Source of the DNA: Eubacteriales bacterium
Lineage (GTDB): Bacteria > Bacillota > Clostridia > Oscillospirales > CAG-272
Assembly: GCA_045594785.1 (NCBI GenBank)
Contig: JAZNZE010000054.1
Coordinates: 52,091-116,090 of the forward strand
Length of the DNA stretch: 64,000 nucleotides
Direction of reading: 5' to 3'
How positions within the stretch are numbered: position 1 is the stretch's first letter; every line of letters begins with the position of its first letter. The position numbers and the translations under genes are program-made. Below the pieces are notes generated by a model that saw nothing but the letters and a program-made list of their open reading frames with translations, was not told the DNA's origin and did no database searches. Below are positions 9,569 to 54,623 of the stretch, in pieces.

Positions 9569-9594
9569 TTGACAAAATAAAGGGAGATTTTGCT

Positions 9595-25907: not shown

Positions 25908-25934
25908 TTTTCACAGTTACACCGGAGGAAAAAC

Positions 25935-27668: not shown

Positions 27669-29428
27669 AAAACGCAAACAAAAAAACCTCCACACTCGCC
27701 AAAGTACTTAAATACATCGGCAGGTACAAGCTTCTTTTGCCTGTAACGCTGCTTTTTGCTACGCTTACGGTGGCGCTGACGTTATACATTCCTATTCTTA
27801 TAGGAGATGCGATTGACCTTATTATAGGAAAAGACAACGTTGACGTTGAAGGAATTGTAAAAATTCTCGGCATAGCCGCAATTCTTATAGCTGTAACAGC
27901 GCTTTCTCAATGGATAATGAGCGCAATTAACAACCGTATAACCTATCACGTTGCGGCAGACGTAAGACGTGATGCATTTGAAAAAATCGAAAAGCTCCCG
28001 CTTTCAACTCTTGATACAAAATCGCACGGAGATATTCTCAGCAGAACGGTTAACGACACAGAGCAATTTGCCGAGGGACTTTTGCTTGGCTTTACTCAGC
28101 TCTTTACCGGTATTCTGACCATCGCGGGAACGCTTGGTCTGCTTATCTGGCTCAGATGGCAAATCGCACTTGTCGTTTTTCTTCTCACACCGCTCTCCCT
28201 CTTCATAGCCAGGTTTATTGCCAAAAAAACCTATAATCTCTTCAAGGAGCAATCCTCTGCAAAGGGAGCGCAGACGGCTCTTATTGACGAAATGATAAGC
28301 AATCAAAAGCTCGTTAAGGCATTTGCCTACGAGGACGATGCTATTCAGAGATTTGACGAAGTGAACAAGCGCCTGGAGCGCGCATCTCTCAGAGCAATCT
28401 TCTTCTCCTCTATTACCAATCCCGCAACCAGATTTATAAACGCTACGGTTTATGCTGTTGTGGCACTTGTAGGTGCGCTTACCGTCATATCGACTATGGA
28501 CGATGCAGTTCCCTTCACTGTCGGTATGCTTTCCTGTATGCTCTCTTATGCAAATCAGTATACAAAGCCGTTTAACGAAATTTCCGGAGTGGTTACAGAA
28601 TTTCAAAACGCGCTCGCCTGCGCAGGCAGAGTTTTTGAGCTTATTGAGGAAAAGGAAGAAATTCCCGATTCTGAAAATGCCATAGAGCTCACCGATTGCA
28701 AAGGAAACGTTGATATAAAAGACGTTGATTTTTCTTACGTTCCGGAAAAACCGCTTATTCAAGGTCTTAACCTTTCTGTAAAAGCAGGACAGCGTATCGC
28801 AATAGTGGGTCCCACAGGTTGCGGAAAAACCACGCTTATTAATCTGCTTATGCGCTTCTATGACGTTTGTGATGGTGAAATATCCGTTGATTCAAACGGG
28901 ATAACAGAGCTCTCACGAAAAAGTCTGCGAAAGAACTACGGAATGGTTCTTCAGGATACTTGGCTTAAAGCGGGAACGGTTAAGGAAAATATAATTATGG
29001 GAAAGCCCGATGCTACCGATGAAGAAATCATTGCAGCAGCAAAGGCTTCACACGCACACAGCTTTATAAAGCGACTCCCAAACGGATATGACACCTTTAT
29101 AGGCGAAGACGGCGGCACGCTCTCTCAGGGACAAAAACAGCTTCTTTCCATAACGAGAGTAATGCTTACGCTTCCGCCAATGCTGATTCTTGACGAGGCT
29201 ACCTCTTCAATTGACACAAGAACAGAGCTTAAAATACAAGAGGCTTTTCTCAAAATGATGCAAGGCAGAACAAGCTTTATCGTAGCGCACAGGCTTTCTA
29301 CAGTAAAGGAAGCGGATATCATTCTCGTTATGCGTGACGGAAACATCGTTGAACAGGGCTCGCACAAGGAGCTTATACAAAAGGGCGGATTTTATTTCGA
29401 GCTTTATAACAGCCAATTTGCACATTGA
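27665..29428 (+). CDS. ABC exporter half-transporter (TMD-NBD), consensus-site partner
   Basis: Walker A GPTGCGKTT and Walker B LILDEATSSID (catalytic Glu present). The signature is degenerate (LSQGQKQL). 4-bp overlap with the upstream half-transporter. Confidence 0.88.
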   Translation: MKNANKKTSTLAKVLKYIGRYKLLLPVTLLFATLTVALTLYIPILIGDAIDLIIGKDNVDVEGIVKILGIAAILIAVTALSQWIMSAINNRITYHVAADVRRDAFEKIEKLPLSTLDTKSHGDILSRTVNDTEQFAEGLLLGFTQLFTGILTIAGTLGLLIWLRWQIALVVFLLTPLSLFIARFIAKKTYNLFKEQSSAKGAQTALIDEMISNQKLVKAFAYEDDAIQRFDEVNKRLERASLRAIFFSSITNPATRFINATVYAVVALVGALTVISTMDDAVPFTVGMLSCMLSYANQYTKPFNEISGVVTEFQNALACAGRVFELIEEKEEIPDSENAIELTDCKGNVDIKDVDFSYVPEKPLIQGLNLSVKAGQRIAIVGPTGCGKTTLINLLMRFYDVCDGEISVDSNGITELSRKSLRKNYGMVLQDTWLKAGTVKENIIMGKPDATDEEIIAAAKASHAHSFIKRLPNGYDTFIGEDGGTLSQGQKQLLSITRVMLTLPPMLILDEATSSIDTRTELKIQEAFLKMMQGRTSFIVAHRLSTVKEADIILVMRDGNIVEQGSHKELIQKGGFYFELYNSQFAH

Positions 29429-29446
29429 TTTAATTTTTGTCAGGCG

Positions 29447-30445
29447 GTGATTTTGTTGGCAAATATCAAAGAATACAGAAACATATACAAATACGTTCTC
29501 GATTCTCTCGATAAAGGCAAGCTCTCAAGAAGAGAATTGATTTTTTCGGTTATTGACGCTTTTAATCTTACCGATTACGAGCGTCTTGACGACAGTATGA
29601 ACGGAAGGCTAAACGTTTTGCGCAGCCGTATCGGACTTGTTATAAGCGATATGGAAGCTAAAAATATAATAGAAAAAGAGCCTTCCGGCTTCTACTTCAG
29701 GGCAGAAGAAAAAGAAATTGCAATAAGAATAGAAGAATGCGAAAGAGAAATTCTGGATATTCTTAAAGCAGAGCCAAGGACAAAATATCAGATAAAGGAT
29801 TCTCTTATAACCTTTTTCGGCACTGACACCACCGCGTCCGTAAGAGATGACAATAAGCTTTTTACTTATATGGGACAGATTCTGAAAAGGCTTGTCGGAG
29901 AAGGTATACTTGATTTTGACGGCTCGGTTTATTCTCTTGCCCCTGAGAAAAGCGCATATATAAAGGACAGGCGAGAGGTCTTACGATTAAAAGCAACCTT
30001 TCTCTCAAAGCTTCACTCAAGAGGCGGTGAGTTCTTTGAGCACTATTTTATGAATCTTATAGCTAAATATCTTGCTCTAAAGGGAAAGCAGGTTATTGAG
30101 AGCCACGTTACAGGAGGCTCCGATGACGGCGGAATTGACGGCATCGTCCGTACGATTGATTCTCTCGGTTTTAGAGAATTGATCATGGTTCAGACTAAAA
30201 ACAGAATCGACATTTCAACCGAAACCGATATAAGAGGCTTCTACGGCGCGGTTTGCGCGAAGCAAGGAAGCAGAGGAATTTTTGCAACGTCCTCGGATTT
30301 TCACCCGATGGCAACAAAATTTCTTGACTCAATCGACAACTGCGTAGGCATCAACGGAGATAAGATATTCGCAATGGCATCAGAAACCGGGTACGGTATA
30401 AAAAGTGACGGCACAAAGCTTCTCATAGATAACGAAATAATTTGA
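29447..30445 (+). CDS. Mrr-like restriction endonuclease domain protein with N-terminal winged-helix-like region
   Basis: The C-terminal part FFEHYFMNLIAKYL...VTGGSDDGGIDGIV...IMVQTKN...GIFATSSDF fits the Mrr_cat PD-(D/E)xK pattern. The GTG/TTG start is uncertain. Confidence 0.75.
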   Translation: MILLANIKEYRNIYKYVLDSLDKGKLSRRELIFSVIDAFNLTDYERLDDSMNGRLNVLRSRIGLVISDMEAKNIIEKEPSGFYFRAEEKEIAIRIEECEREILDILKAEPRTKYQIKDSLITFFGTDTTASVRDDNKLFTYMGQILKRLVGEGILDFDGSVYSLAPEKSAYIKDRREVLRLKATFLSKLHSRGGEFFEHYFMNLIAKYLALKGKQVIESHVTGGSDDGGIDGIVRTIDSLGFRELIMVQTKNRIDISTETDIRGFYGAVCAKQGSRGIFATSSDFHPMATKFLDSIDNCVGINGDKIFAMASETGYGIKSDGTKLLIDNEII

Positions 30446-39695: not shown

Positions 39696-40274
39696 TTATA
39701 CAGTTTCTTTCATTTTAAGTCGGATAACCGTTTTTTCTTCCTGAATTTCGCTTTTCAAAGATACGTATTCATATTCTCCGCTAAATTTTTCGGCTTTAAA
39801 GACGGTATCAATATCGCTTTCGTCTACTCCGAAATACTTAAGCAGGGATTTGAGCGTTTTCTTACCTCCGATTGCTTTTCCTCTAAAGAGATAAATATCA
39901 ACGGGCACGTAATTCTCGTCATCCTTTATCCAGCTAAGCTCCGGCGGCTTGCCGTCATTTCCAAAAAGCTCAACTCTTATCCTTCTTTTTCCGTACGAGG
40001 TGAGTATAAGCTCTTTCCCTTCGTTAATTTCAGCATGGTCTCGGGAGGAATACAACCCGTGATACCTGATTTCCTCAAACGAGATACTGATTGCTCTGAA
40101 AAAGTAAACGAAAATAAAAAGCATTGACAAACCAAGAAAAATCAAAAGAGGATAAAGCTTTGTAAGCTCATCTGAATACTGATTATAATGTAGTGTAATT
40201 GCAAATAGTATAATAATCGGTATTTCGGTTAAATATACCCTTATTCTTGTACAAAACAAATATTTTTTTCTCAT
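39696..40274 (-). CDS. Hypothetical membrane protein (two N-terminal TM helices plus a soluble C-domain)
   Basis: Hydrophobic segments IPIIILFAITL and LYPLLIFLGLSMLFIFVYFF. No recognisable domain. Confidence 0.5.
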   Translation of the reverse strand: MRKKYLFCTRIRVYLTEIPIIILFAITLHYNQYSDELTKLYPLLIFLGLSMLFIFVYFFRAISISFEEIRYHGLYSSRDHAEINEGKELILTSYGKRRIRVELFGNDGKPPELSWIKDDENYVPVDIYLFRGKAIGGKKTLKSLLKYFGVDESDIDTVFKAEKFSGEYEYVSLKSEIQEEKTVIRLKMKETV

Positions 40275-40372: not shown

Positions 40373-43300
40373 TTAATCGATGTATATTTCCGCAAGTCCG
40401 CCTGCAAGTCCTATCATCTTGATTGCGGTAATTGAGAATTTATCTGCCACTATCGTAAGACGCTTATTCATTACGCCGCGAGCAAGAATCTTTACTCTCT
40501 CTGCTTTGGCGTTTATGAGCTTCTTTTCTTTTAAGTCTTTTATGGTTACGGTATCACCGTCTGCAAAATTTTCGCAGATGGTATCAAGATTAACCTCATA
40601 TAGCTTCTTAGACAGCGGTTTCTGTTCAGGAAGATGCTTTACTTTTTCAACAAATTTTTCTGCCTCTTCGTCTGCAACTATAGTATTTGCGGTTTCAGGG
40701 TCGGCAAAAATCACTTCTTCAACGGGAGCTTCTTCCTCGGCGGGAATTTCTTCCTCAGCGGGAGCTTCTTCCTCGGCTGGAGCTTCTTCCTCTGCGGGAG
40801 TTTCTTCCTCGGCTGGAGCTTCTTCCTCTGCGGGAGATTCTTCCTCGGTGGGAACTTCTTCCTCTGCGGGAGATTCTTCCTCGGTGGGAACTTCTTCCTC
40901 TGCTGGAGCTTCTTCCTCGATGGGAGTTTCTTCCTCTGCTGGAGCTTCTTCCTCGGCGGGAATTTCTTCCTCAGCGGGAGCTTCTTCCTCAGCGGGAGTT
41001 TCTTCCTCGGCTGGAGATTCTTCCTCGGCGGGAGATTCTTCCTCGGCGGGAGATTCTTCCTCAACGGGAATTTCTTCCTCAGCTGGAGCTTCTTCCTCGG
41101 CGGGAGCTTCTTCCTCTGCGGGAGATTCTTCCTCTGCGGGAGATTCTTCCTCAGCTGGAGCTTCTTCCTCGGCTGGAGCTTCTTCCTCAGCGGGAGATTC
41201 TTCTACATTATCAACTCTCTCGATTACTGTATTTTCATCGATAACCACACCTTCCGGAAGAATAAGCTTAACAAGGTCGCGCTCGTAAAGAGCATCGTTA
41301 GATTCATAGGGCATATGATAATCTACGCTCGGAATCTCGCCTTGAAGAATTCCGTTATTTTTCATAACTTCATCGATAAGCTCTATTGCATATTTAAGTG
41401 CTCTGTCACTCTTGACCTTAAGCATCATAGGAACTTTATCAAGCTTGGGTTTATCAGAAACATCAACAAAATGATACTTGCTTGCGCTATAATCTGCCGG
41501 ATTAAGAGCGAGATAAACGAGAAGTGCACTACCCTTTACGTTAAGCTTCACACATTGAGTTCTACCTAGATTGAAGGACTCAAAATTCCAGCTCGACCTA
41601 GCTTTAACGCCTTTGTAAGAGAGAATATGATTTTTTATTGCAGTATAGTAATCCTGTATAGAATCATCCGACTGAATAAGTCTTGACATGTAAGAGGTTC
41701 TGTAGCGAACAGGAACAAGCGTTCCGTTAATCAAACGTTGCTCCGACATATCTTCACCGTCTAAAAAAGCTATAGGTGTTTCTTCGACAGGTGCAGGCTC
41801 TTCGGTTGCTTTAGGCTCTTCAGTTACTTCAGGTTCTTCAGCTACTTCGGGCTCTTCAACTACTTCAGGCTCTTCAACTACTTCAGGCTCTTCAGTTACT
41901 TCGGGTTCTTCAGCTACTTCAGGCTCTTCGGCTACTTCGGGCTCTTCAGCTACTTCGGGCTCTTCAGCTACTTCAGGCTCTTCAGCTACTTCAAGCTCTT
42001 CAGCTACTTCAGGCTCTTCAGCTACTTCAGGCTCTTCAACCACTTCAGGCTCTTCAGCTACTTCGGGTTCTTCAACTACTTCGGGTTCTTCAGCTACTTC
42101 AGGCTCTTCAGTTACTTCGGGCTCTTCAGTTACTTCGGGCTCTTCAGTTACTTCGGGCTCTTCGATTGCTTTAGGTTCTTCAGCAATAACCGTTTCGGTT
42201 ATTCTTACGTTTCCTTTAGCAACGTGAAGAACTATGCGCATAGGCGCGAGTGTGATAGCCGGCTTTGGCTCAGCAGCGGCAGGAGCTTCAACTGCTTCTG
42301 CTTCTTCTGCTGTTTCTACCTCTGCAGACTCTTCTTCAGCATCGAAAGGCTCATCAGGTACAAGCTCCTCGTGTGTAGGCTCAAAGGTCTCATAAGAAGC
42401 CACTTGTGCTTCTGCCTCCGGCTCAAAAGCAGGTATCTGCTCTGCTTCTTCTTCCGAATCAGATTCGGAAGAAGGAGTTGATATTGCAATCATATTAATC
42501 GCAGGCTTCGCCTTTGCTGCTGCTCTTTCAGGAGTAGGAGTAACGTTTTTAACAACAACTCTGGGAGTTGCAAATACTCTGGGATCTTCTTGCGCGATTT
42601 TTTCCTTTTCAGGCTCAGCGGGAACGACAACCTCTACAGCTTTAGGTGCATCTTCTGCAGGCGCTGCTTCACCTACTTGAGGCTGAACTACAGGCTCAGC
42701 TTCTGTAGAAACAGGAACATAAGCTGCGGCAAACAAGGAATTTGCCGAGTTATTAAGTGCAGAAACGGGAGCTTCAAAACCGGAAACGTCCTCATACGTC
42801 TCAGGCTCAGGCTCTTTTTCGGTTTTCGAAACCGGCACAACCGCTGCAACTACGGAAGGTTTCCAATACGACTGAGGCTGAGGAGCGGGTTCTGCTTCAT
42901 CAGCGGCAGGTGACTTAACAGCGGAAGGCTCGTTTGGTGTGAACAGTGCATTCGCTGAGTTATTAAGCTCAGAAACGGGAGATTCAAAATCAGGAACATC
43001 TTCATACGTATCAATCTCGGGTTTCTTTTTGCTTTTTGAAATGGGAACGACCGCGGCTGCAACTACGGGTGCTGCCGAAGGCTTCCAATAAGCGCGAGAC
43101 TGCGGAGCAGCTTCTGCTTCGTCAGGAAGACGCGATTTAACGCCGGAAGGCTCGTTTTGTGCGAACAATGCATTTGTAGAATTATTAAGACTATTAAGCG
43201 GATCCTCGAAGAGCGATGACTCTGACAAGCCTTCCGGTTCTTCTACGCGCTCTGATGCATTTACAGGAATCATTGCGGCAGCAAACATCGCTTTTTCAGG

Positions 43301-46300
43301 AGCTCTTCTTGAAACCGGCTCTTCAATATACGGTTCATCGTTTATCAACTGAGGATCCTCAGGCTGATAGCTCTGAGCGGGCATCCAACGGGATTCGTGC
43401 TGCTCCGGTCTGTTAGCAAGCTTCGATTTCGGAGCGGCTGCATTTGCCGCAAACATAGCATTTGTTGAATCGTTAAGACCAAACGTGGGGTCTTCAAATT
43501 CATTAGCCGGATCATCAAAGGAATATGTTTTCGGCATATACTTGGACTGCGCTGTTGATGCCGCTTCATACTCGTCTGCACGCTTAGATTTTTTCACAGG
43601 AATGACAGCTGCTGCAACGAAAGGCGCTGCGGCACGTCTCGAAGAAGTTTCTTGATTTTCGGGCATATATCTCTGCCTCGAATCTCTTGTGTTCGTTTCA
43701 AGAGGCGCAACATTTGAGGTAAACAGTGAATCCGTGGTATTGCGAAGCTGGGAAATAGGCTCGTCAAATCCCTCGTTTTCCGATGAAGGCGCGTGCCTAT
43801 GCTCCGGTGTCCATATAGAATTTTTTCTTTCCGACAGGTTTGCACGTCTGCCGTTTCTAGCAGAAACAGCAGCTACAGCAGTATCATCATCGTCAAAAGA
43901 ACGGCGGCTGGATACGCTTTCATACTCCTGATAGTCTTCATAATCACTATATTCTTTTGCTTGGTTTGCTACCGGCATTTGACGCTCTTGCGCGTCAAAT
44001 GCCGTTTCTTTCCCCGAGCGCTTTGATCTCCCGGAATGCTGACCATCGTCATTATCGTAATACGAATCGTCAGAATCCTTCTTGCCCTTTGCATTTCTTC
44101 TTATCTTCATCTTTCTGGAGAATATAAATACAATAAATAGGAAGAGAAGAACGAGAATAACTATAAGAGCTATTGTGAGCCAGGGTGTTTTTTTCTTATC
44201 ATCCGTAGGATTCTGCGGAGGAATAATCTCCGGGGGAGCATCGGTTATATCAACAACTGCATATACGGAGAAATGAGTGGTATGGAACACAAGATAATCA
44301 CCATCGCGAGAAACAAGCTCGTTATCGATAGGCTCTATCGTTCCGTCATCCTTAATGTGTATAACACCAAGGGTCTTTCCCTCTCCTCTGAACTGCTCAG
44401 GTATAAGAATTCTAACAATGAAATTATCACTTACAGAAGCCTGCGCACCGTCTTTAACGAAATGAATATCGTAAGCAACTACAAGCGCAACGTTCTTACC
44501 CTCGCCAAAGATACCCGTCAAATCAAGCTCCTGATAGCTTTCGGTTTTTCCTACAACGTTGACGCTGTATTCTTCGCTGATGCCGTTTTCTGCTTCAATC
44601 TTGATTATACCGTCTTCGCCGAAGGTAAATTCATTCTTGATAGAAGGCTCAAGAGGACGATCAGGTTCGGTGATATCACCGAAGCCGGGATCAGAGGGAT
44701 ACTGAGGATCATCGGGGTTGTCGGGAATATCCGGTGTGTCGGGACCGCCGGGAGTATCGGGATAATCAAAGTACGGGTCGTCTTCGGTGAGAATTATAAG
44801 ATGAGCTTCCATTGTTTGTATGGGCTGATAATTTATTTCATCACCGTGGAAAATAGCTCTTACCGTATGTACGGTTTTCGCGTCTTTATTACCCGTCTGA
44901 CCGTTACCTACATACTCTACGCTGACACCCTCGGGCAGATTTCCGCTAATGGTAATGCTGTGCGGTCTTCCGTTCCACTTTACTATCTTGTTTTCAAAGC
45001 TTATACCGCTCATATCGTAGACAGCTTTTTCGATAATCCACTCACAGCTATGTGCTGAAAGCTCATAGTCAAGATATGCGGAGGAGTTTCTTGGCAAAAG
45101 CTCTACGTTAACTACGTACGTTCCTGCATCGGTAGCGGAAAGATCTCCGGAATATCTAACCTCAAACAATTCAAGAAGCTCTGCATCAAGATGAGTGAGG
45201 TCAAGCGTGGGATAAACGGTTTTCGCAGTTCCGTCATATACGTAGGGCGCAACAGTCAACCAGTTAAGCGTTCCGATTTCGATATAAGAGCTTACTATAC
45301 GCCAAATGCAAGAATACTCTATCGTACCGTCTTCTCTTATCGAATCGCTTCCGACAAAGAAGTAGTTTTCGGAATCCTTAAGCTCAATTACAGCGGTAGC
45401 GTTATAGATGTTTACTTCACTCGCAACGTTATCCATATAGGTAACGTTTACAAGAGCGGGGTCAAAGCCCTCAATCAGTACGCTATACTCGCTTCCGTTG
45501 TTATAGATAAACGGACGGGTGTAATTCCATTTTACGTCAGATACGTCAACAGAAGCCTTGGTTATAGTCCAAGAAACCTTTCCGTTAATCGTATTAAAGC
45601 TGTGGTTTGGTTCCGACTCCTTAAGGAAAAGTCTGTAGCTTATATAGTAGGTTCCTGCATTGGTAGCCGAAAGAACACTTTCTTCCTCAATTATTTCGTA
45701 ATCAAGGAGGTTTTCGTAATTTGCAGGAAGCTTAAACGTAACCGTTTTTTCGGTACCGTCATATACAAAGGTGGACGGTGTTACAATAGGTGTAACCGTA
45801 GTGTCTGCGTCAAGAGGCTTTTTGTTAATCGTCCATGAAAATTCAAGGTCAACCGTAGTCTTACCTGCCTCGAATGAATAGTTGGAATTCTCAATCTTAA
45901 GGCTTACGTATACCTTGTATTCTCCCGCATTGGTTGCGGAGAACTCAGAACCTTCCATTACTCTGTTGATGGAAACTATGCCTTTGCTCTCGTACTCAAG
46001 CAAAGCAGAAGAGAACAGAAGCTCTACTCCCTGAGAATTGCCGTTATAGGTAAATTCGTCAGCATTTAAGCTTACGTTAATCTCGATAACCTTCGAATCA
46101 ATGAAATATTCAAACTCGGAGGTGAAATTACCGGAGATTATATAGTTTAAGGTCTCTCCCTCGGTAACCGAAACTTTAACCTTATATTGACCGACATTTA
46201 CAGGAGTATCTATGGACTCCCAGGCTTCAGTGTCAGAATTGTAAACGAAATACTCGTATACGATAAAGCCCTCTCCGTCAGCAGGAACACCTTCAAGAGT

Positions 46301-49300
46301 TATCTTGTGTCCGTTCTCATCATAGGGAATATGATATTCGTTATTAGCATCGGTTTCGGGCCATTTTGCGCTACCAAGATCTATAACCTTCTGAGTTATC
46401 TTCCAAGGCTGAGGCGCAGGGAGCTTTATTGCATTGTCTTCAGTCTTGAAATCATAGTTAGCCGCAACGGCGGAATAGCTTTCATGCTCGGTATCAAGCA
46501 CTACGTTTGCTATGAACTCACCGGAATTAACCGACTTTTCTCCGGTATATTTAATCAGCGGAAGAATATCTCCGGGAAGACCTACTATGGCAAGTCTCTT
46601 TTCGGTTGCATCGTAAGTAAATTCAAATGAGTTCACGGGATTAAGAACTTCAGCTCCGCCCTGCTCTACCCTAACGATATATGCCTGCCAGGTATACTGA
46701 GAAAGATCTATTGACTGCTTCTTGATTTCCCAGTTGAACGTTACTTCTTCCGAGCCTATCCACTCATAGTTCTGAGCATACGCTGCATCAACAAATACAA
46801 CCTTAGCCTTGGCAGTATACGTGCCTACGTTAGTCTTGCTGATGTCGCCGCCTATGGTAGAAATCGCAAAAATCTGAGCAACCGCGTCATTATTGATAAA
46901 CGCACTTACAGTGTGAGGTGAATTGAACTTATAGTAATCCCCGCTTGCGCTCTGGTGGTTAAAGGATACTATTTCATTGCCGTACTGCTTCTTGGCAATG
47001 CTCCACTCATAAGCAATCGTGATTATATCGCCTACTGCAAAATAGGAAGCGGTGCTTACAGGACCGTCATATACGTAGTTAGGGTCTATAATTCTGAAAT
47101 CTACGTAAGCGGTGTAGGTTCCGGCATCGGTAGCGGTAAGATCGCCGTACGGCTGACCAACTAATTCAAGAATTCCCTCATATGCGCTGAGTATGGAATC
47201 TATATCGAAGGATACTCCTATGTTAGAATCTCCATACGTAAAGCCGCTGCCGCTCCATCCTGCCTGAAGCGAGGAGTGAGTTACGGTCTTGGGAGAAATG
47301 CTTACAGTAACGTTATTGCTATTTTTAACAACGTCCTGTCCTGCTACGTTTACGGTTATAACGCACATATAGGTTCCGGAATCGGAAACCTCGGTTATGC
47401 TAAGGGTATTGGTGGTTTCACCAACCATAAGCGTGCCGTTCTTATACCACTGATATTTTGTATCGGGTGTGTTGGCGCCGTAGATAGATGCAACAAGAAC
47501 AAGAGGATTTCCGTCATAGGTCTTGCTATAGGAGGCTTCACCTGTAGTCTGGTCTGTAACAGATACGTACGCATCTCCGATTTCTGCAAATATCGGATAA
47601 AGCACAAGCTCTATTTCACCGCTTGCGAAATCAAGCGCAGGCATCTTTTCGTGATGAGTGCCTATTGCATCCTTCCAGCCAACGACAGGATTGTTTTCAT
47701 AGTTGGTTATAGGAGCAAAGAAATCAATATCAGCTCCTACGGGAAGGAATCCGGAAAGCAAGGTTTCTCCGTTAACAACGTAATCTATCTTGCCTACGTT
47801 TTCAACCTGAACGTTAACAGTCAAGTCAACGTCAAGAGTTAGATTATAGAAGAATGACTGGAGAAGAAGAACGGTTTTTTCGGCTTTTTCCGCATCCTTC
47901 TTTGCTATAGCGTCATAAAGGAGCTTATCGAGCTCAAGAAGCTGAATTTCACTAAATTCAAATACAGCTCCGTAGTCGCTCTGGCCCTTATATATGCCCA
48001 GTATACCGTCCTTAAGGTCTTCACCGAAGCCGGCATCTTCACAGTAATCATAAACGGTGTTAAACAGCTTTATGAGCTTGAAGTAGTACTCCCGGTACTC
48101 GTCAATCTTTTCCTTTATTTTTTCGGTTGAAAGTCCTTCAAGTCTTTCAAAACGGCTTACAAGCTGAGCGTTGATTATTCCGTCAAGGTCTGCGGCAGAA
48201 TCGATTCTGTCAATAACACTCTTGATATCCTCGATAGTAAAATCGTTGATAAAGGCGTGCATACCGTCAGGAGTTTCAATAACCTTTTCGAATATCGACT
48301 TCTTAACAGAGTCAGGAACCTTTTCGGAATCGCAAATCTTCAAAAGGAAATCTGCAAACTTAGCGGGAAGCTTAACGTTTATATTCGAAATCATTCCTGT
48401 AACTGCGTTATACTCAATGCTGAGATACTCGCTGATAACGTCAAAGAGCTTATTTACCTTTTCGTGACCTTCACCGAGCTTTACGGTAACGGTAAATACG
48501 GTATCCATTGCACTGCCGGGAGTATTGTCACCGAAGACGGTTTCAATTCCCATCTTATATTTGAGCTGCATTTCAGCCTCAGTCATAGTAGCAAGCTCTT
48601 CAATGGTAGGGAGATTATTTATTATGTCAAGGAGCTTTTGGAAATCAAATCCTACACCGTTGCTGCCGCTGAGCAAAATTGACTCTTCGTCTTCAAGCAC
48701 AGTATCTTCGTCAATATCTATGCGTATATCGGTAATAAGCTCAAGGATAGCCTTTGCTCTTTCGGCAGTATCGTCTATCTCGTCAAGCTCGTTAAGCGTT
48801 TCTGTATATTTTTCGCCAACGATGTGAGCGATATTTGCCATTTTAGCTTCGATTTCGTTGTAGGTGATTTCAAATCCGAGATACTCTACGAGAAGCTCGT
48901 CAAACGTGCCCTCGCTGAGCTTGCTGTCAACTATAGCTACAAGCTCCGACACAAGATGGTTAATGTCGTCATTGGTGAAATCAGTAATAGCCTCGGCTAT
49001 CATATCGTTAATATCGTCATCGGTAAGAGATGCGTACATCTCTTCAACGAGCTCTGCGCGATCCTCTGCAGGAAGAGCTGCGATAGCTTCAGCGGCTGCG
49101 GTTTCAACGTCTATGCCGTCAATGATAGTCTGAAGAGCGTCCGAACCAACGGATTTTATAACCTCGTCATAATTGATTCCCGAAAGTATGGTATCAAGCT
49201 TCGCATCGTCAAGTCTATCAAACACGGTATCAATTACATTTTCTACGTCCATTGAATCAAACGCAGTCTGATAATCCGCTGCGGTAAGGTTGGTTTCCAC

Positions 49301-50779
49301 ATAGGATTTGATATCGTCATCGTTGATGTAATCAAAATATTCCGAAGGCTCAATGTTGCCGTCATCGTATATTTGGGCAGCATCATTATAACTGATGCCT
49401 CTGTCATCGACTATGTAAGCTATAACCTCTTCCCTAACCTTAGACTCGATAAGGTCAAAGAAAGCAGGCTGTGTTGCTATCTCACCGCGCTTGTAAGCTT
49501 CGTAATCAGCAAACTTATCTTCCACAAAATCGGAAACAAACGCATCGATCTCGGTCTGTATCATTCCGTTAAGGTCGTTTGCAGGAACGGTTGTTCCGCT
49601 TTCTTTAGCAGCAATATAATCGTCTACGCAGTCTTTTACATAATCCTCCGCAAACTGATCTATATAGGGCTTAAAGAGCGCGTCCGCACTTCCGGGCAAG
49701 GGAGTAACGCCATTAATCTTATTAGAAACGTAAGCGTCTATACGCGCCTCGATATAATCGTTAACGTAATCCTCAATAATTCCGTTAACAAAAGAGGTCG
49801 TATCAACGGAAGTACCGTTAAGCTTTGCCTCAATGTATGCTTCAATAGCAGCATCTGCCTCGTCAGCTATATATTTATCAATGTAGTCGGAAAGGTATTC
49901 ATAAAGCCCGTCTTCAGCGTGAGTGCCGGGAGCTGCAAGATTATCAAGGTAGTTATCAACCGTTTCCTTAACAAGCGAATGCATATAATCTTCGATTTTA
50001 TCAGTAAGGTCGGTTCTTCCCTTTTCGTTCTTTACGTAAGCTATGTAATCACGCACAGCCGACTCGATATAGCCGTCAATCGTGGTATGAAGCAAAGTGT
50101 TAAGCACGTTTTCAACGTAGCTGTCTATGCCTTCAGCCGAAGGAAGAGACTCGCGGATTTCAGGCTTAAGGAGGATAGCTGCTCTTACAAGAGAGCAAAC
50201 GAAATCTGCAAAATCCTCAACTGTCGCGGTTCCTGTAGCGGAATCGAGAGCATCCTTTATGAACTCCATTTTACGATCATCGGAAACCGAACCGTCACCG
50301 TTCGAATCGCCAACGCTTGCGTAGTGCTTATCAAGGTAAGAGCCGAGAGCCTTTTCCCAAACGTTATCGGCATTCAGTCCCTCCTCAATAATATCCATTC
50401 CGCCAAAATCCGCAAGAACGTCATCAAGAGCAACCTCCTTGATAGCCTCTCCGAGTACAGAGAGAATTTCAAGCAGCTGTGCTCTGTTCGTTCCAAGAAT
50501 AGCGGACTTATCGGGTGTGAGAACTACGGTTATCTCATTCGTATCCGTATCGTAAAATACGTCACACCAGCCCGTATCAAGCGAGCCGCTCTGACCTCCG
50601 TTTGTTCCGTTAGCGCCGCCTAGCGTACCGCTTTCCAATGCACTCTCGCCTGAACCTATCGAGCCGGGAACAGCCGAGTTATTCTCTGCCGAAGCAGCGC
50701 CTATCGTAACCGCGCTGACGCCAAAGAGCATTGTCAAAACAAGAAGCAATGTAATGATTTTTCTTATCGTTTTGCTCAT
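40373..50779 (-). CDS. Giant (3468 aa) bitopic surface protein: signal peptide, acidic helical region, Ig-like and MBG-like beta repeats, one TM helix, long repetitive acidic cytoplasmic tail ending in a uL15-like domain
   Basis: Start trimmed to ATG 50779 (MSKTIRKIITLLLVLTMLFGVSAVTIGAASA). Repeated FxY(D/N)G and SATNAGTY motifs. TM helix WLTIALIVILVLLFLFIVFIF at 44120-44182, followed by SRKMKIRRNAKGKK. Uninterrupted 10.4-kb frame. Confidence 0.85.
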   Translation of the reverse strand: MSKTIRKIITLLLVLTMLFGVSAVTIGAASAENNSAVPGSIGSGESALESGTLGGANGTNGGQSGSLDTGWCDVFYDTDTNEITVVLTPDKSAILGTNRAQLLEILSVLGEAIKEVALDDVLADFGGMDIIEEGLNADNVWEKALGSYLDKHYASVGDSNGDGSVSDDRKMEFIKDALDSATGTATVEDFADFVCSLVRAAILLKPEIRESLPSAEGIDSYVENVLNTLLHTTIDGYIESAVRDYIAYVKNEKGRTDLTDKIEDYMHSLVKETVDNYLDNLAAPGTHAEDGLYEYLSDYIDKYIADEADAAIEAYIEAKLNGTSVDTTSFVNGIIEDYVNDYIEARIDAYVSNKINGVTPLPGSADALFKPYIDQFAEDYVKDCVDDYIAAKESGTTVPANDLNGMIQTEIDAFVSDFVEDKFADYEAYKRGEIATQPAFFDLIESKVREEVIAYIVDDRGISYNDAAQIYDDGNIEPSEYFDYINDDDIKSYVETNLTAADYQTAFDSMDVENVIDTVFDRLDDAKLDTILSGINYDEVIKSVGSDALQTIIDGIDVETAAAEAIAALPAEDRAELVEEMYASLTDDDINDMIAEAITDFTNDDINHLVSELVAIVDSKLSEGTFDELLVEYLGFEITYNEIEAKMANIAHIVGEKYTETLNELDEIDDTAERAKAILELITDIRIDIDEDTVLEDEESILLSGSNGVGFDFQKLLDIINNLPTIEELATMTEAEMQLKYKMGIETVFGDNTPGSAMDTVFTVTVKLGEGHEKVNKLFDVISEYLSIEYNAVTGMISNINVKLPAKFADFLLKICDSEKVPDSVKKSIFEKVIETPDGMHAFINDFTIEDIKSVIDRIDSAADLDGIINAQLVSRFERLEGLSTEKIKEKIDEYREYYFKLIKLFNTVYDYCEDAGFGEDLKDGILGIYKGQSDYGAVFEFSEIQLLELDKLLYDAIAKKDAEKAEKTVLLLQSFFYNLTLDVDLTVNVQVENVGKIDYVVNGETLLSGFLPVGADIDFFAPITNYENNPVVGWKDAIGTHHEKMPALDFASGEIELVLYPIFAEIGDAYVSVTDQTTGEASYSKTYDGNPLVLVASIYGANTPDTKYQWYKNGTLMVGETTNTLSITEVSDSGTYMCVITVNVAGQDVVKNSNNVTVSISPKTVTHSSLQAGWSGSGFTYGDSNIGVSFDIDSILSAYEGILELVGQPYGDLTATDAGTYTAYVDFRIIDPNYVYDGPVSTASYFAVGDIITIAYEWSIAKKQYGNEIVSFNHQSASGDYYKFNSPHTVSAFINNDAVAQIFAISTIGGDISKTNVGTYTAKAKVVFVDAAYAQNYEWIGSEEVTFNWEIKKQSIDLSQYTWQAYIVRVEQGGAEVLNPVNSFEFTYDATEKRLAIVGLPGDILPLIKYTGEKSVNSGEFIANVVLDTEHESYSAVAANYDFKTEDNAIKLPAPQPWKITQKVIDLGSAKWPETDANNEYHIPYDENGHKITLEGVPADGEGFIVYEYFVYNSDTEAWESIDTPVNVGQYKVKVSVTEGETLNYIISGNFTSEFEYFIDSKVIEINVSLNADEFTYNGNSQGVELLFSSALLEYESKGIVSINRVMEGSEFSATNAGEYKVYVSLKIENSNYSFEAGKTTVDLEFSWTINKKPLDADTTVTPIVTPSTFVYDGTEKTVTFKLPANYENLLDYEIIEEESVLSATNAGTYYISYRLFLKESEPNHSFNTINGKVSWTITKASVDVSDVKWNYTRPFIYNNGSEYSVLIEGFDPALVNVTYMDNVASEVNIYNATAVIELKDSENYFFVGSDSIREDGTIEYSCIWRIVSSYIEIGTLNWLTVAPYVYDGTAKTVYPTLDLTHLDAELLELFEVRYSGDLSATDAGTYVVNVELLPRNSSAYLDYELSAHSCEWIIEKAVYDMSGISFENKIVKWNGRPHSITISGNLPEGVSVEYVGNGQTGNKDAKTVHTVRAIFHGDEINYQPIQTMEAHLIILTEDDPYFDYPDTPGGPDTPDIPDNPDDPQYPSDPGFGDITEPDRPLEPSIKNEFTFGEDGIIKIEAENGISEEYSVNVVGKTESYQELDLTGIFGEGKNVALVVAYDIHFVKDGAQASVSDNFIVRILIPEQFRGEGKTLGVIHIKDDGTIEPIDNELVSRDGDYLVFHTTHFSVYAVVDITDAPPEIIPPQNPTDDKKKTPWLTIALIVILVLLFLFIVFIFSRKMKIRRNAKGKKDSDDSYYDNDDGQHSGRSKRSGKETAFDAQERQMPVANQAKEYSDYEDYQEYESVSSRRSFDDDDTAVAAVSARNGRRANLSERKNSIWTPEHRHAPSSENEGFDEPISQLRNTTDSLFTSNVAPLETNTRDSRQRYMPENQETSSRRAAAPFVAAAVIPVKKSKRADEYEAASTAQSKYMPKTYSFDDPANEFEDPTFGLNDSTNAMFAANAAAPKSKLANRPEQHESRWMPAQSYQPEDPQLINDEPYIEEPVSRRAPEKAMFAAAMIPVNASERVEEPEGLSESSLFEDPLNSLNNSTNALFAQNEPSGVKSRLPDEAEAAPQSRAYWKPSAAPVVAAAVVPISKSKKKPEIDTYEDVPDFESPVSELNNSANALFTPNEPSAVKSPAADEAEPAPQPQSYWKPSVVAAVVPVSKTEKEPEPETYEDVSGFEAPVSALNNSANSLFAAAYVPVSTEAEPVVQPQVGEAAPAEDAPKAVEVVVPAEPEKEKIAQEDPRVFATPRVVVKNVTPTPERAAAKAKPAINMIAISTPSSESDSEEEAEQIPAFEPEAEAQVASYETFEPTHEELVPDEPFDAEEESAEVETAEEAEAVEAPAAAEPKPAITLAPMRIVLHVAKGNVRITETVIAEEPKAIEEPEVTEEPEVTEEPEVTEEPEVAEEPEVVEEPEVAEEPEVVEEPEVAEEPEVAEELEVAEEPEVAEEPEVAEEPEVAEEPEVAEEPEVTEEPEVVEEPEVVEEPEVAEEPEVTEEPKATEEPAPVEETPIAFLDGEDMSEQRLINGTLVPVRYRTSYMSRLIQSDDSIQDYYTAIKNHILSYKGVKARSSWNFESFNLGRTQCVKLNVKGSALLVYLALNPADYSASKYHFVDVSDKPKLDKVPMMLKVKSDRALKYAIELIDEVMKNNGILQGEIPSVDYHMPYESNDALYERDLVKLILPEGVVIDENTVIERVDNVEESPAEEEAPAEEEAPAEEESPAEEESPAEEEAPAEEEAPAEEEIPVEEESPAEEESPAEEESPAEEETPAEEEAPAEEEIPAEEEAPAEEETPIEEEAPAEEEVPTEEESPAEEEVPTEEESPAEEEAPAEEETPAEEEAPAEEEAPAEEEIPAEEEAPVEEVIFADPETANTIVADEEAEKFVEKVKHLPEQKPLSKKLYEVNLDTICENFADGDTVTIKDLKEKKLINAKAERVKILARGVMNKRLTIVADKFSITAIKMIGLAGGLAEIYID
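40715..41203 (-). repeat. About 27 in-frame tandem copies of an 18-bp unit encoding x-P-A-E-E-E
   Basis: The plus strand reads GCGGGAGCTTCTTCCTCG-type units. The protein reads SPAEEEAPAEEEAPAEEE... with variation mainly at unit position 1 (A/S/T/I/V). Confidence 0.9.
41793..42185 (-). repeat. About 21 in-frame tandem copies of an 18-bp unit encoding E-E-P-E-V-(A/T/V)
   Basis: The plus strand reads CTTCAGCTACTTCAGGCT-type units. The protein reads EEPEVTEEPEVTEEPEVAEEPEVV... Confidence 0.9.
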
Positions 50780-50831
50780 TCTAATAATCCAACCTTTCGA
50801 ATAAGTAAATATATTATTAATATTTAGATAA

Positions 50832-50860
50832 ATTATATCACTCGCGCGAAAAAATGTCAA
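50832..50860 (-). promoter_or_regulatory. Consensus sigma-A promoter of the giant gene
   Basis: Minus strand: TTGACA (50855-50860), 17-bp spacer, TATAAT (50832-50837). Confidence 0.7.
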
Positions 50861-50872
50861 TAGAAAAAAAAT

Positions 50873-50930
50873 AAAACGAGCCAAAAGCTTGTAATAACGT
50901 TAAATATTACAAAAATCAGCTCGTTTTTTT
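50873..50930 (-). terminator. Long compound hairpin terminator after the 1117-aa gene
   Basis: Outer stem AAAACGAGC/GCTCGTTTT and inner stem TTGTAATA/TATTACAA, with T-runs on both strands. Confidence 0.7.
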
Positions 50931-51017: not shown

Positions 51018-54000
51018 CTATCTTCGAGCACTTCTGATGGCTTTTATGAGGATTATAATACCAAGAGGAAGCATAACCGCGCAAAGATAAAAGGCTGCCA
51101 GCACAAGCAACGCTCCGGTATCAACCAGAGACTGCGTCATATTAACCGAATACGGCGGAATTATTTCGATTCCGAAAAGCGTTAACCCCGGGAATATTTC
51201 AACTCCCTTAGGCTCTTCGGTTTTCTGATGCTCATTTGCCAGATAAAGAGCCTCATATACCGCATCTCCGCTGACGGTAACGATATCAGGCGACCAAAAT
51301 CCTTGTGTGTAGTAATACTTTTCGTCTGCCGCCTTTGGCGGAACAGGCGGAGCGGTTACGGTCTCACCGTATGGCAAAATTATGGTGTAAATAATCTTCC
51401 CTTCGGCAATGAAAGTAATCTTATGGGTAACTACGTGATAATCCACACCGACAAAAACAGGGCCGGAATTAATATAAAAGCCTCCGTTTGTGATTTGAAT
51501 TTTATTTCCTTCAGCGTCAAGATAGTAAATCATATCTATGACTGCACCCTTGGGAACCTTAGAAAGAGTGACATTAACGAATTCACCTTTTTTAGCAACC
51601 GAAGGCACCTGCACCTCAACCTCTCCGGTAGGTAAAAGGTTAACAGAATATTCAACTACGGCATAGTAGGTTTTGCCCGGAGCAAGCAAAGCACTGAGGG
51701 TATTATACTGATAGCTCGATTTTACGGCTACCCTTTCGCCATTCTCGAGGTAATAAAGCAAAACCTCTTCACCGCTACCGTAGTCAAGCGTCTTATTTAC
51801 GCTTATCCTAAGTCCGCTAAGCGCTTGATTATCGTCAGGAGAAACTTCTATTCCATTACTGTTAAAGAGGTTTACCGAGATTCCGTGCCCGGAGCCGCTT
51901 TGCATGAGAGTAGTTGATACAGAAACGCTTACGGCATCTGCCGAAGCCATTTTAGCTATTGTGTCGGGAAAAAGAGTAAGAGTAAAGCTTCTGAATTTTA
52001 CTGTAACCGAATCGGTGGAAGAGAGTCGCTTCATAATCTTACCCAAATTAATTTTTCCGTCCTTCGAAGAATGATCGACTATAAAGCCATCTTCGTTTCG
52101 CGACACAGATACCGTGCTGCCATCCTCAAAGGTACATATAGGCACTCCCTTAAATTTCGCAACGTAGGTGGCATCGCTGACGACCTCGGTTATTTCCCTA
52201 TCCCAACCGATAAATACGTATTCGTAAATTTCAATATCCGGCTTTTGCGGATTGCTCGGCGGTACAGGCATCTGACCGTACTCTACCTCAGTTACCGTGA
52301 GAGAGCCCTCAATATTCCAGGTAACCGCGTAGGATTTTATGTGTTTATCAAAAAATGGGTACAACTCAAGCGAGCTCTCTATCGAGGTGACGTCACAAAC
52401 CCTTCCCTCTGAATCCATCCAGCCCGCAAACGTATACGTAGCCTCCTGAGTCTCTTTCTTAGTAGGAATGGGGCCCGAATAATCCGCGTAGGTTCCCTTA
52501 TCAACCAAGACAACGTCACGGCAGGCTTCTCCGTTTTCATCGGTATAATTAAACTTCACCTCGAAAAATTCAACGTTTCCAAGCTGCTTTAAAACCTCTA
52601 TCTCGATTTTAAGCATTACGTCACCGTCAAAATTATCGCGAGGCGTCAAAGACTCTTCCTCCGCCAAAGCGCGAACCGCATCGGGAGCTTCATAAGGCAG
52701 AGGCTCGGGACCCGGGGCTGCTACAGCTTCCGGGGGGTTACCGGGATTTGCTACGGGTACGGGAGGATTGCCCGGATCGGCTACAGTCTCCGGTTTTGTG
52801 GGCTTAGCAACGAAATCCGGACGTGTCGGCTCAGTCAGCTCAGTTTCGGGTAATATAGGTTCTTTGGCAAAAGGAGGATATCCCGTTGTAAGAGGAATTG
52901 CGTTCTCCGTGTCCGGCATATAAGGAAGGTTATCAAGGAGCTTGATGGGAGTTTTTCCCGTCAAAGAATTTACAACGTAGCTTTCGTTATATACCGCTGT
53001 TTTATCGTAATTATAAACTGCACCGTCATTCAACGCATTCACGAGATAATAAAGCTGAGCAAGAAGAATTTCGTATTTTTCCTGTATTCCCTTTTCGTTA
53101 AGAATCAATCTTACCTTGGAATTGGAATACATTTTATCGAGCGAGATAAAAAGATTAGTGAAATTAAATCTGAATCCCTCGTAATTCAAAACATAATATG
53201 CATACTTCTCCGCTTCGCCCTCAATTGCAAAGTATTCTTTACAAATTTTCCTAAGATTCTCGGTTGAAATACCTGCAAGGTCTACTATCTGTCCTTCAAC
53301 TCCTACCGTTTGATTGGCAATTGCATCCTTATTTTCTATTACCTGCGTAACGGTAGTACCTATGATTACAGCACTATATACCGAGCGTTGCAGGTCGGTG
53401 GATTTTACCTTAATTCCGTCAATTATGGCAAGCTGCTCTCTTACGATAACAATATTTTTTGCATAGGTCTGATACATTTCAAGCAGCTCATCGTAATTGT
53501 CCTTCGTTTCGATATATTCACGATAAGCAGCATACTGCTCATTATAAAGCTTTAGGTCATCTTCGTATTTCAGATAATCGTCCATTTTGGCTTCGTAGTC
53601 TTCAAGCGCCTGACGGTAATCGTTATACTCCTTAAGATTCCTTTCATAAGCCGCTTTTTCGGTTCTGTAGGTGTCGTATAAAAGACGTGCAGCCTCATAT
53701 TCCGCAACGGCTTCAAGATACTCAGCGTAGCGCTGAGTATTTCTTTCATAATCTGCACGAGCTTTTTCGTATTCTGCAGCCTTTGACTGAAGAAGCGCCT
53801 TCCAAGTTTTAGAGTCGTTATACGCTTTGTTGATAAGCAGGTTCGCATCGCGCTCGTCTATCTCAATTTCGGTCTCGTACAAAACCCTTGCTTTTTCGCC
53901 TTCAACGTAATAAGATGCCGGAAAATCGGCAACGTATTCATTTTCCGAAGCTTTATTAAAGAACACCGTCTTATCACCTACCGTAACCACTGACGGCAAA

Positions 54001-54371
54001 AAAAGAACCTCAGCACCGTTCTTTGCGGTATACGAATATTTTTTGGCTTTTACACTAAAATTACCGCTCACCTCATCTCTGCCTATCGCAACAACACCGG
54101 TAGGAATATGCGAGACGTAGTTAATCTCATATTCACCGTAAAGCTCAAGGTAGGCAGCTTCGGCTTCAACAAGCTCCTCGTCACCGATAAGCTTTGAGAC
54201 TATATCGGCTGCAGTTAACGTAGTTATATCCGCAGCGCCGGGCTTAGAGTAGTCGTTTTTCAAGCCTCCACCATTACCCGCCGCAAAAGCAGAGGTGGCA
54301 AAAAGAGCTCCTAATATTACAAAAAGCAAAATCGCGGTTGTCAATTTCGCATAAATTTTACGTTTTTCCAT
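51018..54371 (-). CDS. Large (1117 aa) tail-anchored surface protein: signal peptide, Tyr-periodic coiled-coil, Pro-rich linker, Listeria-Bacteroides-type (YxFxGW) repeats, C-terminal TM
   Basis: Start at ATG 54371 with AAAGAGG RBS. Signal peptide LLFVILGALFATSAFA. Repeats ATYTFAGWMD and YEYVFIGWD. C-terminal ALLVLAAFYLCAVMLPLGIIILIKAIRSARR. Confidence 0.8.
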   Translation of the reverse strand: MEKRKIYAKLTTAILLFVILGALFATSAFAAGNGGGLKNDYSKPGAADITTLTAADIVSKLIGDEELVEAEAAYLELYGEYEINYVSHIPTGVVAIGRDEVSGNFSVKAKKYSYTAKNGAEVLFLPSVVTVGDKTVFFNKASENEYVADFPASYYVEGEKARVLYETEIEIDERDANLLINKAYNDSKTWKALLQSKAAEYEKARADYERNTQRYAEYLEAVAEYEAARLLYDTYRTEKAAYERNLKEYNDYRQALEDYEAKMDDYLKYEDDLKLYNEQYAAYREYIETKDNYDELLEMYQTYAKNIVIVREQLAIIDGIKVKSTDLQRSVYSAVIIGTTVTQVIENKDAIANQTVGVEGQIVDLAGISTENLRKICKEYFAIEGEAEKYAYYVLNYEGFRFNFTNLFISLDKMYSNSKVRLILNEKGIQEKYEILLAQLYYLVNALNDGAVYNYDKTAVYNESYVVNSLTGKTPIKLLDNLPYMPDTENAIPLTTGYPPFAKEPILPETELTEPTRPDFVAKPTKPETVADPGNPPVPVANPGNPPEAVAAPGPEPLPYEAPDAVRALAEEESLTPRDNFDGDVMLKIEIEVLKQLGNVEFFEVKFNYTDENGEACRDVVLVDKGTYADYSGPIPTKKETQEATYTFAGWMDSEGRVCDVTSIESSLELYPFFDKHIKSYAVTWNIEGSLTVTEVEYGQMPVPPSNPQKPDIEIYEYVFIGWDREITEVVSDATYVAKFKGVPICTFEDGSTVSVSRNEDGFIVDHSSKDGKINLGKIMKRLSSTDSVTVKFRSFTLTLFPDTIAKMASADAVSVSVSTTLMQSGSGHGISVNLFNSNGIEVSPDDNQALSGLRISVNKTLDYGSGEEVLLYYLENGERVAVKSSYQYNTLSALLAPGKTYYAVVEYSVNLLPTGEVEVQVPSVAKKGEFVNVTLSKVPKGAVIDMIYYLDAEGNKIQITNGGFYINSGPVFVGVDYHVVTHKITFIAEGKIIYTIILPYGETVTAPPVPPKAADEKYYYTQGFWSPDIVTVSGDAVYEALYLANEHQKTEEPKGVEIFPGLTLFGIEIIPPYSVNMTQSLVDTGALLVLAAFYLCAVMLPLGIIILIKAIRSARR

Positions 54372-54623
54372 ATAAACCTCTTTCATTTATATACATCAGT
54401 ATAACATCAGAGAAAGAAAAAATCAAGTACCGTCACTCATAATTTACATATTACCCACGATTCCGATAAGTTTAAAATCAGCCAAGATTAATTTGTTCTA
54501 TGAAAGCCAATACGGCTTACGATTGTTCAAAAATTATGAGAAAAAATTAACGATAGTGCAAATACTTTTTCAAGGATTGAGATTAAAATATACGTAACTA
54601 CTCAAACTCAAAGGAGAAAAACT

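Follow-up and report, generated by a model that had tools for sequence, protein, structure and literature searches.

What does a piece of a ribosomal protein do at the end of a giant surface protein? The question is raised by a 64,000-nucleotide (nt) stretch of DNA from a Eubacteriales bacterium (GTDB order Oscillospirales, CAG-272; assembly GCA_045594785.1, contig JAZNZE010000054.1, positions 52,091 to 116,090), the whole of which we call the window. Its minus strand encodes a predicted type I membrane protein of 3,468 amino acids (aa), and an initial annotation had aligned the last 75 aa or so with the C-terminal half of the bacterial ribosomal protein uL15 (RplO). The resemblance proved to be true homology. 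Beyond that, the uL15-like tail turned out to be the terminal piece of a cytoplasmic module, together with one to four copies of a second domain (here called mid), that is found on more than 1,000 distinct membrane proteins of gut Clostridia.

A uL15 globular domain that is not rplO

The C-terminal sequence quoted in the initial annotation was found verbatim at the end of the 3,468-aa protein, and database searches confirmed true homology between the last ca. 75 residues and the globular domain at the C terminus of uL15. Pfam placed PF00828 (Ribosomal_L27A) on residues 3395 to 3462 (E = 5.4e-13; 49.6 bits, gathering cut-off 21.5), and the NCBIfam model TIGR01071 (rplO_bact) aligned over positions 68 to 141 of its 144 (E = 1.9e-12). 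A phmmer search against all PDB chains returned uL15 proteins only, including those of Enterococcus faecalis (E = 1.8e-8) and Bacillus subtilis (3j3v_L, residues 70 to 145; E = 3.4e-8). The columns that had been listed as shared (VNLD, FA.G..VT, VKIL, K.LT, KFS, and AGG.AE) are identical columns in the B. subtilis alignment. With a profile built from ten tail sequences, 31 distinct PDB sequences were matched (best E = 2e-13), all of them ribosomal uL15 and always in the C-terminal globular domain, that is, ca. residues 70 to 145 of the ca. 145-aa bacterial protein or the equivalent part of longer plastid chains. Identity to Firmicutes uL15 across the whole globular domain was 35 to 44%.

Structure prediction and superposition on uL15, proposed in the same annotation as a check, gave the same answer. 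They were carried out on the module of a homologue (P0021) that is 53 to 59% identical to the window protein; the AlphaFold2 (AF2) model (predicted local distance difference test [pLDDT], 82) superposed on solved uL15 structures over 71 to 75 residues with a root mean square deviation of 1.1 to 1.7 Å. Within the tail family the lysines in VKIL and KKLT, both uL15 motifs, never vary, and other invariant residues are specific to the family (DTIC, LARG.M.K, and KMI.LAGG).

That the tail is not the cell's own rplO, as had also been stated, was borne out by several results. TIGR01071 scored 47.2 bits on the last 120 aa and 40.5 on the whole protein, against an equivalog cut-off of 77.95. The basic, glycine-rich N-terminal extension of uL15 (TIGR01071 positions 1 to 67), from which much of the ribosomal RNA (rRNA) contact of uL15 comes, was not found in the tail, where the alignment starts at position 68, and positions 1 to 45 of the tail family profile match no uL15 at all. 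In place of the extension there is a conserved acidic helix (..AD..v.DEEA..I.), which belongs to the folded tail domain in the P0021 model, and this exchange argues against canonical incorporation into the ribosome. The spc operon context (rpmD-rplO-secY) was not found around the gene, whose neighbours encode a 192-aa membrane protein, a Cys/Met-metabolism pyridoxal phosphate enzyme, a homoserine O-succinyltransferase (HTS family), and a 1,122-aa surface protein. A search of the window for a canonical rplO, by tblastn with a true uL15 (P0014), found the tail alone. Altogether, the tail lacked most of the defining uL15 features that were tested. What it shares with uL15 (TIGR01071, PF00828, and the L15p/L18e fold of SCOP) is the globular C-terminal domain (ca. 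70 to 145) with the motifs VNLD, G..V, VKIL, K.LT, FS..A, and AGG. However, uL15 is a stand-alone protein of ca. 145 aa encoded in the spc operon, whereas the tail domain makes up the final 75 to 110 aa of membrane proteins of 400 to 6,300 aa. The tail is a duplicated copy of the Firmicutes-type globular domain; the basic N-terminal extension that penetrates the rRNA was lost, and an acidic helical lead-in was acquired.

Taken at face value, the database name for such proteins, "uL15 family ribosomal protein," would make the tail a true ribosomal protein; alternatively, an assembly or frameshift artefact might have fused rplO to a surface-protein gene. The PF00828 match does exceed its gathering threshold, and both PGAP and JGI assign names of this kind. 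We give these explanations practically no credence, considering the partial TIGR01071 match at 47 bits against 78, the continuous 10.4-kb open reading frame (ORF), the lack of spc operon context, and an architecture that over 100 independent representative proteins and 80 loci of metagenome-assembled genomes (MAGs) have in common. An assembly chimera was rejected on the grounds of this recurrence.

A cytoplasmic module on membrane proteins of gut Clostridia

Counted from the first possible start, the ORF spans positions 40373 to 50884 on the minus strand. The ATG at 50779 (MSKTIRK...) is the likely start and yields the 3,468-aa protein; the stop codon occupies bases 40373 to 40375, and the frame is unbroken across 10.4 kb. 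The features of the gene are as follows, with the evidence for each in parentheses (HMM, hidden Markov model; TRF, Tandem Repeats Finder).

40373 to 50779, minus strand: gene of the 3,468-aa type I membrane protein, stop codon included (ORF list and translation)
50832 to 50860, minus strand: predicted sigma-70-like promoter, TTGACA-17 nt-TATAAT, upstream of the gene (sequence reading; a perfect consensus match only)
50798 to 50793, minus strand: Shine-Dalgarno sequence GAAAGG (5' of the ATG at 50779)
50687 to 50779, minus strand: Sec-type signal peptide, residues 1 to 31, with an ASA/E cleavage motif (hydropathy and sequence)
44186 to 50686, minus strand: extracellular part with immunoglobulin (Ig)-like repeats, residues 32 to 2198 (Pfam Ig_2 and Ig_3, slightly under their gathering cut-offs, at 26.6 versus 27 bits and 25.9 versus 30)
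44114 to 44185, minus strand: single transmembrane helix, residues 2199 to 2222, followed by SRKMKIRRNAKGKK (Kyte-Doolittle scan and sequence)
42164 to 44113, minus strand: acidic disordered cytoplasmic linker, residues ca. 2223 to 2872 (charge and motif positions; net charge of residues 2223 to 2860, -49)
41794 to 42163, minus strand: tandem repeat of 18 nt, 20.6 copies, encoding acidic linker repeats EEPEV(A/T) (TRF and translation)
41246 to 41716, minus strand: mid domain, ca. 157 aa, basic alpha/beta, no Pfam family (HMM from homologues, E = 3e-86)
40723 to 41203, minus strand: tandem repeat of 18 nt, 26.7 copies, encoding acidic linker repeats EE(A/S)PAE (TRF and translation)
40382 to 40708, minus strand: complete tail domain, ca. 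109 aa, with the acidic helical lead-in (..AD..v.DEEA..) and the uL15-like globular domain (family HMM E = 1e-47, alignment, AF2 model)
40394 to 40597, minus strand: core uL15 homology (PF00828), residues 3395 to 3462 (Pfam, TIGR01071, PDB searches, and fold superposition)

The cytoplasmic tail therein amounts to 1,246 aa with a net charge of ca. -200 and consists of a disordered acidic stretch, 20 EEPEV(A/T) repeats, the mid domain, 26 EE(A/S)PAE repeats, and the uL15-like end.

The side of the membrane on which this tail lies was assessed first in the window protein and then across the family. Only two segments of the 3,468-aa protein are hydrophobic, the signal peptide (1 to 31) and the transmembrane helix (2199 to 2222, then SRKMKIRRNAKGKK), and no further helices able to invert the topology, named in the initial annotation as a refuting sign, were found at a Kyte-Doolittle threshold of 1.6. 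Over 110 family members, the 15-aa flanks of the last transmembrane helix contain on average 0.55 lysines plus arginines on the N-terminal side versus 4.09 on the module side, which is the richer of the two in 106 proteins. Members anchored at the N terminus have uncharged N termini and an RK-rich stretch after the helix; those with a signal peptide and a transmembrane helix are RK-rich on the module side as well, and a supposed two-helix subfamily proved to have three hydrophobic helices, again with basic residues on the module side. By this family-wide positive-inside rule, the mid and tail domains are consistently predicted to be cytoplasmic, in agreement with the topology initially assigned to the window protein.

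A regular-expression scan found no LPXTG-type motif near the transmembrane helix, only LPGSA at residue 361, so sortase anchoring was rejected. With the LPXTG surface proteins of Gram-positive bacteria the window protein shares the signal peptide, a long Ig-like ectodomain rich in repeats, and, toward the C terminus, a hydrophobic segment with basic residues after it. However, those proteins end in a charged tail of 5 to 10 aa, whereas here a 1,246-aa cytoplasmic tail of folded domains follows.

To see how widespread the arrangement is, a mid-plus-tail profile was searched exhaustively against 1.84 billion representatives. There were 6,367 matches at E ≤ 1e-3, 4,060 at E ≤ 1e-10, and 1,696 representative clusters at E ≤ 1e-30; the uL15-like end is missing from a minority of the latter. 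The best 150 matches were dissected with separate mid and tail HMMs. The tail was present in 112 of them, invariably at the extreme C terminus and invariably behind one to four mid copies, with a transmembrane helix upstream in 110; the remaining two look like truncated or miscalled genes. The region before the helix can be nothing (P0131, 393 aa), a short stub, an S26-signal-peptidase-like domain, or an ectodomain of up to more than 5,500 aa. The module is thus made up of a transmembrane helix, an acidic disordered linker, one to four mid domains, and the uL15-like end. The initial picture of a uL15-like domain closing a giant surface protein is real, but the domain is no lone appendage, and the giant surface part, which had been cast as the tether, is incidental, since many carriers of the module have little or no ectodomain.

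All 80 genome loci and all named relatives come from MAGs of ruminant and human gut bacteria, classified as Clostridia, Eubacteriales, Oscillospiraceae, or "uncultured Ruminococcus." Viral contigs were scanned twice, using the tail and the mid alignments, and gave no relatives, and comparison with PHROGs gave nothing meaningful; a phage origin was rejected on these results.

Early word-indexed searches had returned only "proteins" of 75 to 330 aa (P0001 to P0047), some of them named ribosomal protein L15/L18E, which are fragments. At one locus (L001) the gene caller gave a 159-aa product (10001 to 10480), yet the frame is open for 2,080 codons (4238 to 10480) and, together with the upstream ORF, forms an orthologous giant with a signal peptide, an Ig-like ectodomain, a transmembrane helix, at least two mid domains (an N gap interrupts this part of the scaffold), and a uL15-like C terminus. 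Such fragmented calls are probably caused by the low-complexity acidic repeats, by N gaps, and by contig ends. Between the window protein and this orthologue the ectodomain is 24 to 29% identical, the mid domains 59 to 62%, and the tail 56%. By these values, it is the cytoplasmic module that is conserved, whereas the giant surface part varies, and with an ectodomain so free to vary, the function of the module would be generic and independent of it.

An (L)N(N/D)S(A/T)NA(L/M)F motif also occurs in the linker of the window protein, in about four copies plus degenerate ones, within repeats of ca. 75 to 90 aa (residues 2438 to 2683; window 42730 to 43470, minus strand). The L001 orthologue lacks the motif in its short tail. 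The motif could be a linear binding motif.

Fragmented calls have a practical side. PF00828 serves as a single-copy marker (PMC10102025). The tails exceed its gathering threshold and are often called as 75- to 330-aa L15/L18E fragments, so they can be miscounted as extra copies of L15. Such miscounting could distort estimates of genome number, completeness, or contamination, and the tails could contaminate L15 alignments.

One way to account for the module without any nucleic-acid ligand is to see exapted folds in it, i.e., protein-protein or bulky "stopper" domains that anchor, oligomerize, or localize single-pass proteins in the absence of sortase anchoring. The missing LPXTG motif would fit, as would the location of the module after a single transmembrane helix in giant adhesin-like proteins that need to resist pulling, the loss of the RNA-binding N-terminal extension of uL15, and the flexible arrangement of the domains relative to each other (predicted template modeling score [pTM], 0.45). 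We rate this explanation as unlikely, although likelier than the other rivals of the favoured one: P0131 and some 30 other members have no ectodomain to anchor, both domains are basic and strongly conserved, and mid also occurs in soluble nuclease-like proteins, where anchoring would be senseless.

The mid domain and the possible ligand of the module

The mid domain has no family in Pfam or NCBIfam and no counterpart among PDB sequences, and a Pfam search of 20 members at E ≤ 10 gave no match to YjbR, DUF1801, or DUF5655. Its AF2 model is confident (pLDDT, 88; pTM, 0.80). A Foldseek comparison with the PDB gave weak matches only, although they form a coherent set, the best being Escherichia coli YjbR (2fki; E = 0.017, target TM-score [TMt] 0.53), followed by 2oc6, 9t2w, 3h9x, and 1kaf; YdhG/DUF1801 proteins, PSPTO_3016, and the DNA-binding domain of T4 MotA are among these neighbours. 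In BFVD, the model matched an unnamed viral protein (D9ZNF6; E = 4e-5) and a DUF5655 protein (E = 4e-4). A YjbR/DUF5655/MotA-like fold is weakly suggested by the models. The "double-wing" domains (YjbR, YdhG [DUF1801], DUF5655, and the C-terminal domain of T4 MotA) are the best structural neighbours of mid, and DUF5655, like mid, is fused to nuclease-type domains. However, there is no sequence-profile relation, the TM-scores are ca. 0.45 to 0.55, and mid is larger (ca. 157 aa), with a C-terminal extension.

The same Clostridia have a sibling family of soluble proteins in which an N-terminal DUF2357 (nuclease-associated) domain is followed by two to seven mid copies. The tandem mid copies and the acidic linkers between them are as in the membrane proteins, but the soluble proteins have the N-terminal DUF2357, neither a transmembrane helix nor a uL15-like tail, and a conserved operon. 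In the two loci described here (L087, 7001 to 10459; L088, 7001 to 10480), this operon comprises a ca. 250-aa unknown gene, a ca. 520-aa unknown gene, the DUF2357-mid gene (ca. 1,150 aa), a ca. 190-aa gene, and a GGDEF/EAL gene. The ca. 190-aa product has a faint Peptidase_S26 match in L087 and no Pfam match in L088.

Two observations concern these relatives. A TYENKF motif, invariant in the N-terminal domain of the DUF2357-mid proteins, may be an ExK nuclease motif. Two of the membrane-bound relatives (P0135 and P0122) have an N-terminal transmembrane helix, an extracellular signal-peptidase-I-like domain, two mid domains, and the uL15-like end, and they are a second link of S26-type peptidases to mid; the S26-like assignment was made by eye from an SDSMEP motif, and Pfam gave no S26 match for P0135.

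In the explanation that we favour, to which we give a probability of roughly 40%, the module is tethered to the membrane and binds a polyanion of the cytoplasm, either a nucleic acid or a ribonucleoprotein. Two types of basic globular domain (median isoelectric point [pI] across the family, 9.25 for the tail and 9.35 for mid) would be suspended from the cytoplasmic side of the membrane by flexible polyanionic linkers. The uL15-derived head would bind through an RNA-type surface and the mid domains through a double-wing-like surface suited to nucleic acids; the linkers, long and acidic, would be flexible spacers and might be auto-inhibitory. In this manner the module would couple membrane or surface proteins to the nucleoid or the translation machinery, or position them relative to it. 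The evidence drawn upon for the ligand is the basic pI, the fusions of mid to DUF2357, the fold neighbours of mid, the invariant lysines of VKIL and KKLT, and a match to PDC-S18, one of the PADLOC models for phage-defence candidates. The C-terminal third of that model (ca. positions 195 to 330) matches mid in the window protein (E = 1.4e-7) and in P0061 (E = 1.3e-14); a whole-model match of mid was not obtained.

Several findings weigh against this explanation. The fold matches of mid are weak (PDB E ≥ 0.017, TM-score ca. 0.5), the part of uL15 that makes deep rRNA contacts is absent, and the conserved acidic helix in its place could mask the basic surface. The window protein's own domains are only mildly basic (pI 8.8 for mid and 8.05 for the tail). 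In the contexts inspected, the minimal genes encoding just the helix, mid, and tail are monocistronic among unrelated genes and have no conserved neighbour hinting at a ligand or pathway, so that gene context adds no functional clue.

A narrower possibility, raised already in the initial annotation, is that the head docks ribosomes. It would bind the 50S subunit, a pre-50S particle lacking uL15, or free 23S rRNA and tether it to the membrane for storage, hibernation, or localized translation. To our knowledge, YqjD, ElaB, and YgaM are the only described bacterial class of proteins that tether large ribosomal subunits to the membrane. These proteobacterial hibernation proteins are membrane-anchored and bind 50S, which provides a precedent (bioRxiv 10.1101/2024.08.16.608256). 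They resemble the module in presenting a cytoplasmic domain at the inner membrane face through a single transmembrane helix and would be its functional analogues if docking were right. However, they have the unrelated DUF883 fold and no PF00828, whereas the window protein has no DUF883-type Pfam match; they are also C-tail anchored, ca. 100 aa long, and without ectodomain, whereas the helix of the module lies N-terminal to it. Docking gains from the 35 to 44% identity to Firmicutes uL15 with signature motifs kept, and from a domain that is both cytoplasmic and membrane-tethered. Nonetheless, we find it doubtful, given that the uL15 site is already filled in the mature 50S subunit, that the N-terminal extension has given way to an acidic helix, that no ribosome or translation genes occur in the neighbourhoods inspected, and that the mid companion suggests DNA-type partners. 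We likewise hold it improbable that the head still recognizes the uL15 site of 23S rRNA or a uL15-less assembly intermediate, which would imply a lineage-specific tethering of large subunits or rRNA through hundreds of membrane proteins, giant adhesins included. If true, tethering of 23S rRNA or pre-50S particles by the module would couple ribosomes to the membrane in a new way that has no relation to the signal recognition particle/Sec route or to YqjD.

The PDC-S18 match also brings defence into consideration. The module might be a membrane-anchored nucleic-acid binder, or a decoy of uL15, placed at the inner membrane face to sense or intercept either the nucleic acid of a phage or an effector that targets ribosomes. 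In addition to the match of mid to the C-terminal ca. 130 positions of PDC-S18, mid is fused to nuclease-associated DUF2357 domains, and an Mrr protein and a DUF4011/AAA_11/AAA_12/MTES_1575 helicase-nuclease are encoded in the window, 10 to 18 kb away. However, PDC-S18 is itself a candidate and was matched in part, the few contexts inspected had no defence islands around the genes, the DUF2357-mid operons carry S26-peptidase-like and GGDEF/EAL genes instead of defence genes, and viral contigs had no relatives, all of which makes a defence role very improbable in our view.

Whatever its ligand, the module as a system resembles nothing described, while as a domain its tail is a member of the PF00828 superfamily. 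All 31 of the solved structures matched by the tail profile are ribosomal; apparently, no non-ribosomal protein family based on the L15p/L18e fold was known before this one. Its abundance in gut Clostridia makes it a clear example of a ribosomal-protein domain taken over for a new function in the cell. The statement that the arrangement had not been described holds for the literature, where we found nothing relevant on a uL15-like membrane module, or on PDC-S18 or DUF5655 in this connection; it does not hold for the databases, where the proteins are already abundant and uncharacterized, under an automatic name ("uL15 family ribosomal protein") that is misleading. The new cytoplasmic module and the new mid domain family, common to the more than 1,000 membrane proteins and to soluble nuclease-like proteins, offer an entry point to the coupling of envelope and cytoplasm in uncultured Oscillospiraceae/Ruminococcus-like bacteria.

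Genes around the giant gene

Directly upstream of the giant gene, a 1,122-aa protein (51018 to 54386, minus strand) has an N-terminal signal or anchor, a long coiled coil, extracellular repeats, and a C-terminal transmembrane helix; Pfam gave no match. In L001, the orthologous giant gene likewise has a 1,087-aa gene at this upstream position, and the two genes may therefore form a conserved surface-protein pair. Between the 1,122-aa gene and the promoter of the giant gene, a long hairpin (ACGAGC...GCTCGT, inner stem TTGTAATA/TATTACAA) followed by a T-run (50862 to 50924, minus strand) looks like an intrinsic terminator, by which the giant gene appears to be transcribed alone.

Immediately downstream on the same strand, the 192-aa protein (39696 to 40274, minus strand) is predicted to have two hydrophobic helices near its N terminus and matches no family, and its gene is not conserved at this position in L001. 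Farther away, the 1,260-aa DUF4011/AAA_11/AAA_12/MTES_1575 helicase-nuclease (22125 to 25907, plus strand) and the Mrr-type restriction endonuclease (29447 to 30445, plus strand) flank two ATP-binding cassette (ABC) exporter genes, a group (22125 to 30445) that looks like a small defence-type cluster.

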